From the NCBI GenBank assembly GCA_003290465.1, contig CP030759.1, positions 1,205,144-1,269,143 on the forward strand: a stretch of 64,000 bases of DNA, in the 5' to 3' direction. A model generated the notes under the pieces. It was not told the DNA's origin, made no database searches, and was given only the letters and a program-made list of their open reading frames with translations. Numbering within the stretch: the stretch's first letter is position 1; each line of letters opens with the position of its first letter. This document shows positions 29,054-63,887 of the stretch, piece by piece. The translations under genes and the position numbers were made by a program. The stretch is from Candidatus Sumerlaea chitinivorans. Its GTDB lineage: Bacteria > Sumerlaeota > Sumerlaeia > Sumerlaeales > Sumerlaeaceae.

Positions 29054-29389
29054 CCTGAGCCTTGGTCTTAGCCACTCCGGTTCACAAATCAATGCGAATG
29101 CACTAACGCGCGAATAACAAAAGCATTCGCAATGGGGCAGATTGAACCGCGCGATGACAATGAAAACAGGTGTTTTGCAATTCAGCTACCTGAACTGGAG
29201 ATCAGTTTCGGCAATGCATAGAAAGGCCGATGGATTGGATCGTTACAAACGTACATTCGTTTATCTTGATCGTCGAATCACAGGAACAATGAAGTCGTAA
29301 GTAATGTCAGAATAACCGAGAAGCGCTGGCCGCGCGCTCTCAAGTGAGGGGTGTGATCGCAGTCGAAGTCCACTGTGGAGGTGTGTACG

Positions 29390-29779
29390 ATGACTGCTAC
29401 AAACATTTCCCACAAAGTCCTTGTTCTCCTGCCTGAAAGAGACAAGCCCGCATTCGCTGTTTCCACTGGAACTCCACACCCGATTGAATGGGTCGAGGCC
29501 ACGTCACTCGAGGAGGCCGCGCGTATGCTGCGCGAGCTCGAGTTCGATTTTACGGTGATTGATGCGGACAACCCCTCGATTGATTACCGGAAGTGCATTC
29601 ATTTCGTAAAATCCACTCAACCCAAAGCCCGGGTGGTTGTGGCTGCAGAGATTGGGGATGACGAAATGTGGCTGGATGCGCTCGATGCGGGGGCTTGCGA
29701 TCTCGTGGAGAAACCCATTGATGGGACGTATCTTGAGCGTCTGTGCCACCGCGCAGCAAGCCGCGCCGCCGCCGCGTAG
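29390..29779 (+). CDS. Stand-alone receiver (REC)-like domain protein, degenerate
   Basis: ORF 29375..29779; ATG at 29390 preceded by GGAGG. Fold pattern of a CheY-like receiver (KVLVLL...FDFTVIDADNP...ARVVVAAEIGDD...DAGACDLVEKP) with candidate phospho-Asp and conserved Lys, but lacking the N-terminal acidic DD pair and the conserved Thr/Ser. Confidence 0.5.
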   Translation: MTATNISHKVLVLLPERDKPAFAVSTGTPHPIEWVEATSLEEAARMLRELEFDFTVIDADNPSIDYRKCIHFVKSTQPKARVVVAAEIGDDEMWLDALDAGACDLVEKPIDGTYLERLCHRAASRAAAA

Positions 29780-29898
29780 AATTGTTTGCCATAATTTTCT
29801 AAAATTTGTGAAGTGCACCTTGACAACCACCTTCTTGTTTTCGCGAAGTTCTCTTTGTTAGAATGGGAAAATAGCGAATTTTGGTCATAGGAGAGCGC

Positions 29899-59301: not shown

Positions 59302-59793
59302 TTATGTGCGCGGGTCGGGGTTATTCAGAATCTTTGCCGCTTGTTCAGCCCGGAATGCTTCGAGTTTGGTGCGGTAGCTCGGTTCGCTTTGCGCGAGAAT
59401 GGCTATTGCGAATAGCGCGGCATTGACGGCTCCCGCTTTCCCAATTGCAAACGTCGCCACGGGCACGCCTGCGGGCATCTGGACCATGGAAAGCAGAGAG
59501 TCGAGGCCCTGCAGGGCATCGGATTTCATCGGCACAGCAAGAACGGGTAAGGTAGTCTTTGCGGCCAGAACACCGGCTAAGTGCGCTGCCCCCCCCGCTG
59601 CTGCAATCAGCACCGAGAGGCCTCGCGCGGCAGCGGTCGCGGCATACTCAAAAGCTGCATCCGGAGTGCGATGGGCGGAACAAACACGCACTTCACAACT
59701 AACTCCAAACCGCTCCAACGTTTCCACACAATGACGCATGGTCTCCCAGTCGGATTTCGATCCCATGAGCACACCGACCTGTGGTTGGGACAT
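59302..59793 (-). CDS. purE: 5-(carboxyamino)imidazole ribonucleotide mutase
   Basis: ORF 59302..59919; start re-assigned to MSQPQVGVLMGSKSDWE (59793). Pattern VRVCSAHRTPD, IAAAGGAAHLAGVLAAKTTLPVLAVP. Confidence 0.88.
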   Translation of the reverse strand: MSQPQVGVLMGSKSDWETMRHCVETLERFGVSCEVRVCSAHRTPDAAFEYAATAAARGLSVLIAAAGGAAHLAGVLAAKTTLPVLAVPMKSDALQGLDSLLSMVQMPAGVPVATFAIGKAGAVNAALFAIAILAQSEPSYRTKLEAFRAEQAAKILNNPDPRT

Positions 59794-59912
59794 TGCACGA
59801 TCTCCTTCAAAATCCTCGATGGTTTCGAACGCGCGTTTTCCTGGTTCAAAGGCCGATGGACTCGCAAGGAGAACCAGACGTCGTCGTGTGTGACAAATTT
59901 GTGTCGGGACGC

Positions 59913-61055
59913 CTACCACTCCCTCCTCGGCAATAAGCGAAACAAGTGGTGTAACGCTATACCAATCAAAATGGCCCAGACATACCCATAGGGAACGAGG
60001 GCAGCAAGCAAGCCTCCACTCAAAGCGATAAAGAGTTCTTCACGGTTTGGAGCCACATCCTTGATGAAACGCATCAAAGTTATGGCTTCAAAGACCAGAA
60101 TGACACCAAGTATTGAGGTCGGGAACACTTGAACAAGGTCGGAAAACGCCTTCGAAAAAAACAAGCCAACCACAAGCCAAATGCTTCCATAAATTACGAC
60201 ACTCCCTCCGGTGCGCGCCCCAAAGAAACAATGGCCTGCCATACCACCGCACCCGTGGCACGTCGGAATGCCTCCAAGAAGAGGTTGAACAAAATTCATC
60301 AAGCTATAGGTCACGCCAAGTTTTCGAACGGTGATGCGGCGCTCTGGGAAGAGATCATTTGCGACAGCCGTCGTGGCAAAGAGAGAATTGGACATGCTCA
60401 GGGGAAGTTGTGGTAAAGAAAGCAACAAGAAACCTGTCCAAAGGTCTTCCCACGAAACAGTATGCAAGGTTGGAAGACGAAACTCGATCCCTTGAATTAT
60501 GCTCGAGAACGGGACCTTGCCCTGAAACACAGTCCACACTAACCCCAAAGCCACCACCACTAACGCGGCTGGTAACCGACGATTTCCTATCAGCAGAATC
60601 ACGATCCCCGCCCCCACAAAAGCAAGAAGCCAGCCGAGGGGCCCTTCTCGTGGGATATAATCTTTAAGTGCTAATGAGGCCAGCTGCAGCCCTAATCCGA
60701 ATTGGACACCGCGGATGGCGGAACGGGGAATCAACCGACATAGCCAGTCGAGAATTCCACTCGCTGATAGTATAAGCATCACAATTGCAATCGCAAGTCC
60801 GCCCCCCCAGAGAACATTTGCCGGCAGCTTCTGCGCGAGCACAATCACAGCCATGGCTTTGAGTGGCTGCACCGGCATGGGGATCCCATAGACAAGCCCA
60901 GTCAAGAGCTGCGCCACGCCAAATCCCACGAGGGGTCCCACTGGATCCATCTTGGTTGATTGGATGATGCCGACGATGAGGGGTAGATCGGTACCAATAT
61001 CTCCAAACGCCCCTGCAAGTTCGTTTCGGTTAAAAGAGATTCGTGGTTTCCACAT
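59913..61055 (-). CDS. Putative sulfate/molybdate transporter-family membrane protein
   Basis: ORF 59913..61118; likely start MWKPRISFNRNELAGAFGDIGTDLPLIVGI (61055). About 10 TM helices; N-terminal AGAFGDIGTDLPL motif resembles MOT1/SulP-related transporters. Family assignment tentative. Confidence 0.5.
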   Translation of the reverse strand: MWKPRISFNRNELAGAFGDIGTDLPLIVGIIQSTKMDPVGPLVGFGVAQLLTGLVYGIPMPVQPLKAMAVIVLAQKLPANVLWGGGLAIAIVMLILSASGILDWLCRLIPRSAIRGVQFGLGLQLASLALKDYIPREGPLGWLLAFVGAGIVILLIGNRRLPAALVVVALGLVWTVFQGKVPFSSIIQGIEFRLPTLHTVSWEDLWTGFLLLSLPQLPLSMSNSLFATTAVANDLFPERRITVRKLGVTYSLMNFVQPLLGGIPTCHGCGGMAGHCFFGARTGGSVVIYGSIWLVVGLFFSKAFSDLVQVFPTSILGVILVFEAITLMRFIKDVAPNREELFIALSGGLLAALVPYGYVWAILIGIALHHLFRLLPRREW

Positions 61056-61375
61056 GGCTCCCTTGCCAAAGCGCCGATGGAGCCTCAGCGTTTGCAAGAA
61101 GAATGTTCCCTCGGCCACGCAGCTCCAAACTCGACATTTCTTGACATTAGTTAATGGCGAGCGTGACTCTTGCGAAGGGGCTCACCCGGTTCTTCCGCGC
61201 CCCAACTGACGGACGCCACGTTGCGAGCACGAGTGAAGCAAACTCACTAATGTTACTCCTCGCGAAGATCCGGCTGTTACCTTGTATGCGAGGGTCGCCA
61301 AAGGACGCCCAACACCGCAGGGCAACTTTTCCTTACCACAAGAAACTAAGGACGCAATCAATCTGAACCAATGTA

Positions 61376-61398
61376 GTTTTGTATAATTGATACAAAAC
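61376..61398 (+). promoter_or_regulatory. Perfect 9-5-9 inverted repeat overlapping a consensus -10 box upstream of ackA (candidate operator)
   Basis: GTTTTGTAT-aattg-ATACAAAAC; TATAAT at 61382-61387 lies inside the left arm and spacer; in an AT-rich intergenic region about 110 bp upstream of the ackA ATG. Confidence 0.5.
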
Positions 61399-61509
61399 AG
61401 TCGAGAATATGCTTGATTGCTCAGGATTCTTTATTTGATTGTGGAATAAATTGCGTGCGAAAAGGTACTGTGTCATCGGCTTAATCTTCTTTCAATAAAA
61501 GGAATCTGT

Positions 61510-62748
61510 ATGAAAGTTCTCGTTTTGAATGTTGGAAGTTCTTCGGTAAAATTTGAGCTCATTGAAACAAGCCTCGAAGCAATCCAAAATGGCACGGAAC
61601 GCAAACTGGGCCGGGGGCTGGTCGACAAAATCGGCATGACGACCTCGACGGTGAAGTTTCAGGCGCCCGGTAAAGATCAATTTGTGGACACACCCAATGT
61701 GCCGGACCACCAGACAGCCATCAAGCATGTGCTGAGTCTGTTGTGCGATCCAAAGACCGGTGCCATTGCGAATGTGAGTGAAATTGAAGCCGTCGGACAC
61801 CGCGTAGTCCATGGCGGCGAGGACTTTGTACAGTCGACACTCATTGACGATGCGGCGCTCGAGAAAATCCGTGAGTGCTTTGAGCTCGCCCCCCTTCACA
61901 ACCCCCACAATTATAAGGGCATTCGTTTGATGCAAGAAGCCCTTCCGAACATTCCGCATGTGGCAGTGTTCGATACCAGCTTCCACCAAACGATGCCCAA
62001 ATACGCATATATTTATGCGCTTCCTTACGAAGTCTATCAAAAGTATAAAGTGCGCCGATACGGGTTCCATGGTACGTCGCATCGGTACATGACCTATGCG
62101 CTCGAGACGCGCTTCGCCAAAAAGCCCAGAAAAGAGTTCAAGGCCATCACTGTTCACTTGGGCAATGGCTGCTCACTGGCTGCAGTTGACGGTGGTCGTT
62201 CCATTGACACCTCGATGGGCTTCACTCCCCTTGAGGGCCTGATCATGGGCACACGGTGCGGCGATGTGGATCCCGCCGTGATCCTATACCTCATGGCCAA
62301 GGAAGATCACTCGCTGCAGGAGATGAACACGATCCTTAACAAATTCAGCGGCCTGAAAGGAATCTCCGGCGTCTCAAACGATATGCGCGAGCTCGTGGCT
62401 GCGATGCGTGAAGGGAACGAGCGGGCCACTTTGGCGGTACGCGCATTCGCCTACCGCGTGCGCAAATATATTGGTGCGTACCATGCAGCATTGGGCGGAG
62501 CGGATTATATCGCATTTGCGGGCGGCATTGGCGAGAACAGTCCATTGGTGCGGGAACTGATCCTCGACGGGATGGAGAAGCTGGGAATCATTCTCGACAA
62601 AGGCCGCAATAACTCGGTCGGCGGGACAGGGAGCCTAGGTGGTGAAATCACGGCAGAGGGCTCTCCGATTCGCGCCTTTGTGGTGCCGACGGACGAAGAA
62701 CTTGTCATCGCTCGTGACACCGTCCGTTGCATCGCGGGCGTACTGTAA
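61510..62748 (+). CDS. ackA: Acetate kinase
   Basis: 412 aa; MKVLVLNVGSSSVKFEL, VGHRVVHGG, AVFDTSFHQTMP, RYGFHGTSH; ATG preceded by AAAGGA. Confidence 0.93.
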   Translation: MKVLVLNVGSSSVKFELIETSLEAIQNGTERKLGRGLVDKIGMTTSTVKFQAPGKDQFVDTPNVPDHQTAIKHVLSLLCDPKTGAIANVSEIEAVGHRVVHGGEDFVQSTLIDDAALEKIRECFELAPLHNPHNYKGIRLMQEALPNIPHVAVFDTSFHQTMPKYAYIYALPYEVYQKYKVRRYGFHGTSHRYMTYALETRFAKKPRKEFKAITVHLGNGCSLAAVDGGRSIDTSMGFTPLEGLIMGTRCGDVDPAVILYLMAKEDHSLQEMNTILNKFSGLKGISGVSNDMRELVAAMREGNERATLAVRAFAYRVRKYIGAYHAALGGADYIAFAGGIGENSPLVRELILDGMEKLGIILDKGRNNSVGGTGSLGGEITAEGSPIRAFVVPTDEELVIARDTVRCIAGVL

Positions 62749-62874
62749 TCGGCGCGTGATCTCGGCAAATTGGTGGATCGCCGCTTCCGAGTTGAATGCG
62801 GAAGCGGCTTTTACTTTGGCCTCTCACGCATTTTGCTTCACAAAGAAACTGTGGGCAGAGGATAAGTTTAGGCT

Positions 62875-63390
62875 ATGAAGCGATATATTCTGACTTTCAC
62901 AGGAGCGGACCGGCCGGGGCTGATTGCCGCCATTGCGACAGTGCTGGCCGAAGAAGGGGTGGACATCGAAGACGTTTCCATGACCCGGCTATCGGGCAAT
63001 TTTGCGCTGATCCTGTTAGCCCGTGTGGGTGAGGAAGGGCGATTGCGAGAGCGTATGGGTGCTACTGCAGCAGACCTCGGCCTGCATTGGGACCTCGAAC
63101 CAGCCGTCGAGGAAATTGAGCACGAAAAACCCAACTTATTTGTCTCTGCAGTAGGTCCAAATCGGGTGGGGATTGTAGCTAAGCTCGCTACGACATTGGC
63201 GCGGCACAATGCGAACATCCTTGAGATGACTACCCGCTTGCTGGAACGCACAAGCGTACCAGTTTATCTTGTCCGCATTGAGGCCTACGTTCCGGAGGCG
63301 ATTGAAGCTCTGGAAATGGATCTTCAGGAGGCCGCACGTGAAATCGGGGTAGAGATTCGCGTGGAGCCCATTTCGATCGAGGAGTTATAG
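62875..63390 (+). CDS. Tandem ACT-domain regulatory protein (GcvR-like)
   Basis: 171 aa; two ACT-like halves (ILTFTGADRPGLIAAIATVLAEEGVDIEDV; LFVSAVGPNRVGIVAKLATTLARHNANILEM). Confidence 0.7.
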   Translation: MKRYILTFTGADRPGLIAAIATVLAEEGVDIEDVSMTRLSGNFALILLARVGEEGRLRERMGATAADLGLHWDLEPAVEEIEHEKPNLFVSAVGPNRVGIVAKLATTLARHNANILEMTTRLLERTSVPVYLVRIEAYVPEAIEALEMDLQEAAREIGVEIRVEPISIEEL

Positions 63391-63395
63391 GCGCA

Positions 63396-63887
63396 GTGCC
63401 CGCCCGTCCGATTCTTACCCTGCCCCATCCCCTCCTGCGCGCAAAAGCCGAAGTCGTGCAACCGCCATTTGACGCTGTTTCCGAAGTCATTCGGGACCTA
63501 TGGGAGACGCTGGATGCCCACGTTGGGGTAGGCATTGCAGCCCCCCAAATCGGAGAGTCGCTACGCATCATCGTGGCGGACGCAACCCGCGCCAAACGGC
63601 CGGTGAAAAACCACGGCAGACTTACTCTCATCAATCCGGTCATTCTCGAACGCGAAGGAACAATTGCATTTCGGGAAGGATGTCTCTCCGTGCCTGATTA
63701 CGTTGCCTTCGTAGAGCGCTCGCGCGTGGTGACGGTAAGCGCTCTGGCGCCCGATGGCTCACCGTTAGTGGTCACAGCCGAGGGGTTCGAAGCGGTCATT
63801 CTTCAGCACGAAATTGACCACTTAGACGGCATCCTTTTCATCGACCGGATCCGGCACGCCCGCGACATCAAGCTGCGCCCCCGGTAG
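63396..63887 (+). CDS. def: Peptide deformylase
   Basis: 163 aa; GTG start; GVGIAAPQIG, EGCLSVPD, HEIDHLDG metal-binding motifs. Confidence 0.92.
   Translation: MPARPILTLPHPLLRAKAEVVQPPFDAVSEVIRDLWETLDAHVGVGIAAPQIGESLRIIVADATRAKRPVKNHGRLTLINPVILEREGTIAFREGCLSVPDYVAFVERSRVVTVSALAPDGSPLVVTAEGFEAVILQHEIDHLDGILFIDRIRHARDIKLRPR

Follow-up and report, generated by a model that had tools for sequence, protein, structure and literature searches.

What purpose, if any, is served by a perfect inverted repeat in the DNA just upstream of an acetate kinase gene? The question is raised by a single short site in Candidatus Sumerlaea chitinivorans, a bacterium of the Sumerlaeota, to our knowledge a phylum known only from metagenomes. 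The site lies in a 64,000-nucleotide stretch of DNA that was analysed as a whole and is referred to here as the window. A sequence-only reading of this stretch had described a perfect 9-bp inverted repeat with a 5-bp spacer and a consensus TATAAT box embedded at 61382-61387, a description that the sequence bears out, and had taken the site for the operator of a dimeric repressor that occludes the -10 element of the ackA promoter. The two genes between which the repeat is found are the following, in window positions:

59913-61118, minus strand: gene for an MFS_MOT1-family (molybdate-type) transporter, divergent from ackA (family match; likely true start 61055)
61510-62748, plus strand: ackA, acetate kinase, downstream of the element (PF00871/TIGR00016; 100% identity to AXA35915.1)

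AXA35915.1 is the acetate kinase of Candidatus Sumerlaea chitinivorans, encoded on a 3.29-Mb contig. The gene is followed, 32 nt past its stop codon, by an intrinsic terminator at 62780-62812 (GCCGCTTCCG-agttgaatg-CGGAAGCGGC then TTTT). Because ackA has this terminator of its own and a divergent upstream neighbour, it is monocistronic, and its promoter is confined to the gap of 391-454 bp that separates it from the MOT1 gene. The range reflects an ambiguous MOT1 start, either GTG 61118 or ATG 61055: the longest open reading frame leaves a gap of 391 bp and a start at 61055 one of about 454 bp, with 380-aa gene calls in other assemblies favouring 61055. The gap had been described as AT-rich, about 390 bp long and with the palindrome some 110 bp from ackA. 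Its length by the longest reading frame and the distance (111 nt from the end of the palindrome to the ackA ATG at 61510) both stand, whereas AT-richness holds for the ackA-proximal 170 bp only, where GC is 34% versus 46% in the entire gap and about 54% in the window. The element lies 260-320 bp upstream of the MOT1 gene and could equally well serve that gene.

The surroundings of the two genes show some features of their own. The MOT1 gene overlaps purE by 7 nt (window 59302-61118) and is annotated together with it as one fused 591-aa product in GCA_026005155. One related lineage (L001/L002/L135) is without the MOT1 gene and has instead a 667-bp gene-free gap (L001:2334-3000) with several unrelated strong hairpins (z = -4.0). 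Downstream, the order ackA, a gene for a two-ACT-domain protein (PRK00194-like) and def is kept across Sumerlaeaceae (window 61510-63887; L001-L005, L217, L218), and it persists in genomes with other genes upstream of ackA. The two-ACT-domain protein next to ackA showed no DNA-binding domain. No regulator gene adjoins ackA either, the nearest, some 4.7 kb downstream, being an ArsR/BigR-like one that belongs to a rhodanese operon. Just past the right end of the window, on the minus strand (L215:10473-13123), this operon comprises an ArsR/SmtB (BigR/TsoR-like) regulator, a rhodanese-YgaP and a CoA-disulfide-reductase-rhodanese fusion; it resembles a sulfide or sulfite stress module and stands beside def in relatives too. 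Far from this locus, the largest intergenic gap of the window (29093-29880, 788 bp) coincides with its lowest-GC kilobase and with a gene-strand switch, a few kb beyond the cumulative GC-skew minimum (about 22-24 kb). It was considered as a replication origin and dropped, no DnaA-box cluster being found there.

The palindrome upstream of ackA is the core of a larger, mirror-symmetric element of 67 bp, which together with a nearby repeat of one of its arms comprises:

61354-61361, no strand assigned: outer left arm, GCAATCAA (repeat search, with shuffle and simulation tests)
61376-61398, no strand assigned: central palindrome, GTTTTGTAT-aattg-ATACAAAAC (sequence reading and repeat search)
61382-61387, plus strand: TATAAT, a perfect hexamer and candidate -10 element of ackA (from sequence; its best -35 partner, TCAATC, is poor)
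61413-61420, no strand assigned: outer right arm, TTGATTGC (repeat search, with shuffle and simulation tests)
61435-61441, plus strand: TTGATTG, a third copy and direct repeat of the outer right arm (alternative partner of the outer left arm in the RNA MFE fold)

The palindrome itself consists of GTTTTGTAT at 61376-61384, AATTG at 61385-61389 and ATACAAAAC at 61390-61398, and is better read as an 11-1-11 palindrome with one mismatch, centred on T61387. The two outer arms form a second perfect inverted repeat, of 8 bp, whose centre at 61387 is exactly that of the palindrome. The gap between inner and outer arm is 14 nt on the left and on the right alike, so that the composite, at 61354-61420, reads GCAATCAA-N14-GTTTTGTAT-N5-ATACAAAAC-N14-TTGATTGC. 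Each of the 17 pairs between the arms is a Watson-Crick pair; G-U does not occur. The 14-nt segments between the tiers are complementary at 3 of 14 positions, which is the random level, and the dyad is therefore not a decayed long inverted duplication. Between inner and outer half-sites there is no sequence relationship, and a single protein contacting both tiers is therefore not an obvious solution. TTGAT occurs four times in a stretch of 90 bp, and TTGATTG three times. Two other repeats were noticed in the same gap: AAGGACGC is present twice, 47 bp apart (61301-61308 and 61348-61355), the second time right next to the outer left arm, and the inverted pair ACGCAAT / ATTGCGT (61351-61357 / 61450-61456) is not co-centred with the palindrome.

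Taken alone, the perfect 9-bp inverted repeat is weak evidence of anything beyond chance. Of perfect inverted repeats with arms of 9 bp or longer and a spacer no longer than 10, the window has 10 distinct cases (14 when nested ones are counted), where about 3.5 would be expected; three or four of the 10 are GC-rich terminators and five lie inside coding sequence. Dinucleotide shuffles of the ackA intergenic region yield such a 9-bp repeat in 1.0-1.5% of cases, and since the window has about 28 intergenic regions, one chance case is to be expected every few windows. The 67-bp two-tier element, by its co-centred second repeat, is probably not random. A two-tier dyad was found in none of 200 Markov-simulated 64-kb windows versus exactly one in the real window, in a test framed after seeing the data. 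Shuffling of the AT-rich 170 bp produced it in 19 of 956,000 trials, a rate of 2e-5 that amounts to about 0.03-0.04 per genome, and shuffling of the flanks only gave a co-centred outer repeat with P = 0.0014, both tests again being post hoc. As all tests of the composite dyad were defined after the data had been seen, their significance has to be discounted accordingly.

Whether the embedded hexamer marks the ackA promoter is the point on which the proposed occlusion of a -10 element fares unevenly. In its favour, the dyad is unusual, it lies in the only region where the ackA promoter can be, its core half-sites look operator-like, and the TATAAT at 61382 is the only perfect one in any intergenic DNA of the window. 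Against it, no acceptable -35 accompanies the hexamer, the best candidate being TCAATC at a poor match and 18-nt spacing, and the PWM score of the site is 4.3 versus a shuffle mean of 7.4 for the best site, as judged by a sigma-70-type consensus that may not be that of Sumerlaeota. In the gap as a whole, a PWM scan found no sigma-70-type promoter candidate scoring above shuffled sequence, and a separate promoter scan found no promoter-like site. An alternative candidate, TTGATA-15-TATGCT, would place the palindrome over a -35 instead. A Bacteroidetes-type -7 element, TAnnTTTG, was also considered and rejected: TAGTTTTG at 61374 fits the motif, which however shows no enrichment in intergenic DNA (4 of 25 occurrences). 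Occlusion of the TATAAT is, on balance, a plausible assumption.

In the sequence-only reading, the absence of the motif upstream of other genes, or of ackA in relatives, was to count against an operator, and both kinds of recurrence were indeed missing from the DNA searched. No further copy of the palindrome was found at 3-5 mismatches within 84 kb of S. chitinivorans DNA (the window plus a total of 20 kb of flanking DNA, 2.5% of 3.29 Mb), nor in the 64-kb window at up to 3 mismatches. BLAST of a 121-bp stretch containing the element against the same 84 kb and the relatives' loci gave no other copy, full or partial, and plasmid and phage collections yielded no match. Upstream of ackA, the element is absent from all eight other Sumerlaeota lineages examined (L001/L002/L135, L003/L004, L136, L005, L006/L007 and L217-L219). 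The nearest of these, L001/L002/L135, L003/L004 and L136, have an AckA that is 83-86% identical, and their ackA upstream regions contain no palindrome and no significant dyad; the synteny purE-MOT1-ackA-ACT-def is intact in L003/L004 and, minus MOT1, in L001/L002. The more distant L005-L007 and L217-L219 have other genes upstream of ackA and no such site. A metagenome search with AckA supplied two further close relatives, the remaining loci being those of distant AckA homologues (at most 54% identity). The outer-arm pattern ATCAA...TTGAT was tried as a recurring ackA-upstream motif and set aside, as it occurs in 2 of the 8 other lineages, which is near chance (P about 0.03 by a rough estimate).

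Comparison of the upstream regions themselves offers a glimpse of how the palindrome may have come about. In multiple, global and local alignments, the relatives' ackA upstream regions align to the window little better than shuffled sequences do, and the sole alignment to beat shuffles is a local one with L001 (P = 0.01). There the left arm GTTTTGT is present, and the right arm corresponds to insertions of 8 nt and 11 nt in the window, reverse-complementary to the left arm; this suggests that the right arm arose by small insertions. Seven other assemblies of the same species, from NCBI, JGI and Logan and from different samples (L008-L014), are identical over the 391 bp upstream and differ by no more than one substitution in ackA. 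S. chitinivorans appears to be clonal worldwide, and these assemblies are therefore uninformative on conservation. Judged from the genomes compared, the element is specific to this one species.

The explanation tentatively preferred here, and one that falls short of being probable, is an operator peculiar to this lineage, to which a protein would bind over the likely core promoter of ackA. The element would work as DNA, recognized by a symmetric protein (a dimer or a higher-order assembly), and would belong to the divergent control region of ackA and MOT1. If the TATAAT is the -10 element of ackA, occupation of the core by such a protein would mask roughly -19 to +5 and shut out RNA polymerase, amounting to repression by occlusion, and the outer arms could provide auxiliary contacts for cooperative, symmetric spreading. 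The exact Watson-Crick arms and their strictly equal spacing point to a constraint on duplex DNA, since an RNA helix needs neither.

The most serious competitor, if itself a somewhat unlikely one, is that the element is a neutral by-product of chance or of a short template-switch (quasi-palindrome) mutation, with no dedicated function beyond possibly holding a -10 hexamer. Quasi-palindrome and template-switch mutations copy a complementary arm and thereby create perfect, lineage-specific inverted repeats, and insertions in the right arm that mirror the left one, as in the L001 alignment, are what a template switch produces. A neutral origin also agrees with the number of perfect 9-bp repeats expected per 64 kb and with the five of 10 found in coding sequence, with the 1-1.5% of regional shuffles that contain such a repeat, and with an element that no relative conserves and that has no second copy in 84 kb; in a species clonal over seven assemblies there would have been no time for decay. 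The co-centred outer repeat is harder to accommodate, being very improbable by chance in the simulated windows, per shuffled region and per genome alike, and it is left unexplained by quasi-palindrome mutation as well: a fold-back template switch would lengthen the stem contiguously, without a 14-nt gap, and the poor match between the inter-tier segments speaks against a long inverted duplication that later decayed. The same symmetry bears on a second alternative, less likely again, in which the element is a structured RNA, that is, a stem-loop or three-way junction in a long ackA (plus-strand) or MOT1 (minus-strand) leader that affects mRNA stability, translation or elongation. The 121 nt at 61330-61450 fold at -29.2 kcal/mol (z = -3.4 to -3.8), no other segment of the gap being strongly negative, the outer left arm has two alternative partners (61413-20 and 61435-42), and the plus strand folds better than the minus strand. 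Folded as DNA, the same segment gives z = -3.5, and the core hairpin as RNA is weak (dG -7.9 kcal/mol, z = -2.5). An RNA would have no use for perfect Watson-Crick arms and exact 14 x 14 symmetry, however, and a search of both strands of 60900-61700 against Rfam 15, the Moco riboswitch included, gave nothing at E <= 1. Moreover, no promoter candidate lies upstream of the element, the element is without homologues and the relatives without an equivalent fold (the L001 hairpins being unrelated), and with TATAAT as the -10 the transcript would start inside the right arm, so that the hairpin could not form.

Very improbable by comparison is the remnant of a mobile element that would have landed in the intergenic region as a MITE-like or IS-footprint palindrome, extending over 61336-61444 and flanked by 17-nt inverted repeats of 76% identity. 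Its nested inverted repeats do reach 109 bp, the DNA is AT-rich and lineage-specific, and one copy per 2.5% of the genome would fit a family of tens of copies. Yet neither a full nor a partial copy turned up elsewhere in the 84 kb, in the relatives' loci or in the plasmid and phage collections, a target-site duplication is not evident, and the L001 alignment, which takes in the flanks of the core across the element, speaks against insertion as a block. An intrinsic terminator was rejected, the stem being AT-rich (-7.9 kcal/mol) with no T-run on either strand and the flanking genes being divergent.

If a protein-binding operator is nevertheless the preferred reading, a known family of sites might be recognized in it. 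CRP/FNR, Fur/Zur/PerR, LexA, TnrA, CodY, ModE, dif, attC and sigma-54 promoter sequences were each rejected on geometry or sequence, by comparison with what we take to be their motifs. The Rex operator (TTGTGAA-N4-TTCACAA) was likewise discarded: it is an 18-bp, even-centred site with no match upstream of ackA at up to 3 mismatches, and the palindrome is a 17-bp, odd-centred one. A search for DnaA boxes showed no enrichment, and a literature search with the motif string of the palindrome returned nothing relevant. A scan of genome contigs with the pattern TTTTGTAT-N5-ATACAAAA gave at least 120 matches, those listed being in unrelated taxa and mostly due to chance, as a pattern of 14-16 bases is too common in 596 Gb. 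Among the 120 matches listed, nine have the spacer AC-N-GT, giving TTTTGTATAC-N-GTATACAAAA, where a rough estimate would expect about 0.5. The Geobacteraceae sites of this form among the matches listed lie in the promoter of the monomeric isocitrate dehydrogenase gene (icd), and the palindrome there is the published HgtR operator. HgtR (GSU3364) is a predicted ribbon-helix-helix repressor of 62 aa with homologues reported only from Geobacter, and its site TTGTATACAGTATACTAA, footprinted in front of gltA, also precedes icd, nuoA, atpG and further genes (PMC2817479).

Sites of the same type occur outside Geobacter. The form TTTTGTATA(C/T)-N-GTATACAAAA was seen at L031:3149-3169, L069:6774-6794, L042:4234-4254 and L096:4876-4896, at L020:2920-2940 and L129:2326-2346, and at L023:5614-5634, L133:4561-4581 and L025:2867-2887. 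In Desulfobacterales, an HgtR-type palindrome sits between the TTGACA and the -10 of fadB-like genes (3-hydroxyacyl-CoA dehydrogenase / enoyl-CoA hydratase), and another is present in Syntrophorhabdus. Genes for GntR/FCD regulators adjoin the palindromes in L133 and L025, a Saprospiraceae and a Lachnospiraceae contig. Since these palindromes lie in core promoters of icd and fadB-like genes and beside GntR/FCD genes, it seems that they are used as operators, and other regulators, perhaps of GntR/FadR type, may use the HgtR-type operator outside Geobacter. A different recurrence was noted for TTTTGTATCCCACATACAAAA in Bacteroidota and Clostridia (L035:2032, L047:6605, L063:7195, L057:4269, and as the reverse complement in L090, L120, L127 and L134). 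Its flanks are similar among the Bacteroidota matches (for example ...ACCCGAAT), and it is probably a conserved segment of a coding or RNA gene rather than an operator.

There is a bolder version of the operator reading, considerably less likely than the lineage-specific operator itself. In it, the 67-bp dyad would serve as operator for a protein that globally represses central carbon and energy metabolism in Sumerlaeota; the repressor, HgtR-like or another ribbon-helix-helix protein, would nucleate on TTGTAT-N5-ATACAA and spread symmetrically to the outer arms. If true, this uncultured phylum would gain its first defined cis-regulatory element, and a class of operators described to date from Geobacter alone would be extended. 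Should the element be functional in whatever way, it would provide a first handle on the switching of acetate fermentation (ackA) in Sumerlaeota, with a hint that TTGTAT...ATACAA operators (of HgtR / GntR type) reach well beyond Geobacter; if it is neutral, it would be a neat case of a perfect palindrome born de novo in promoter DNA. As one short site in one clonal species is concerned, the stakes are modest.

How close the element comes to known systems depends on which is chosen. The E. coli GntR/FadR regulator DgoR binds IR1, TTGTAGTACAA, inverted repeats that overlap the regulated promoter (PMC11705089). The half-sites TTGTA and TACAA are shared with the Sumerlaea core, but they are 1 bp apart in IR1 and 7 bp apart in the core (TTGTA-7 bp-TACAA), which accordingly does not conform to the GntR/FadR spacing TnGT-N(0-3)-ACnA. 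A gap of 7 bp between half-sites is a misfit to the usual geometry of a winged-helix dimer, and near ackA, the part of the window examined and its 10-kb extensions contain no GntR gene.

The HgtR operator offers another likeness. The Sumerlaea core agrees with the HgtR dyad TTGTATAC-N-GTATACAA (also TTGTATAC-N-GTATAC(A/T)AA) at 13 of 16 positions, with 0.02 such agreements expected per window, in a post hoc comparison reached through a pattern search that fixed the outer arms of the core. All three disagreements are in the central AC-N-GT. HgtR sites number at least 12 per genome versus no second Sumerlaea site in 84 kb (2.5% of the genome), a stretch that includes the upstream regions of atpG, atpC and the H+-PPase gene, and no outer tier has been described for them. 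In common, both are 17-bp, odd-centred dyads with TTGTAT...ATACAA as outer half-sites, both lie over or just downstream of core promoters (a likely one, for ackA) of genes for central carbon or energy metabolism, and the Geobacter icd sites among the matches listed have the same TTTT/AAAA flanks as the Sumerlaea core.

The classical trp, LexA and lac operators are conserved among related species and usually recur as a regulon or stand beside the gene for their regulator. For the Sumerlaea element, the relatives compared showed no conservation and the 84 kb searched no recurrence; in its architecture it is nonetheless like them, as a symmetric site that overlaps a -10-like hexamer and the predicted start. 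If real, it belongs to a well-known kind of element.
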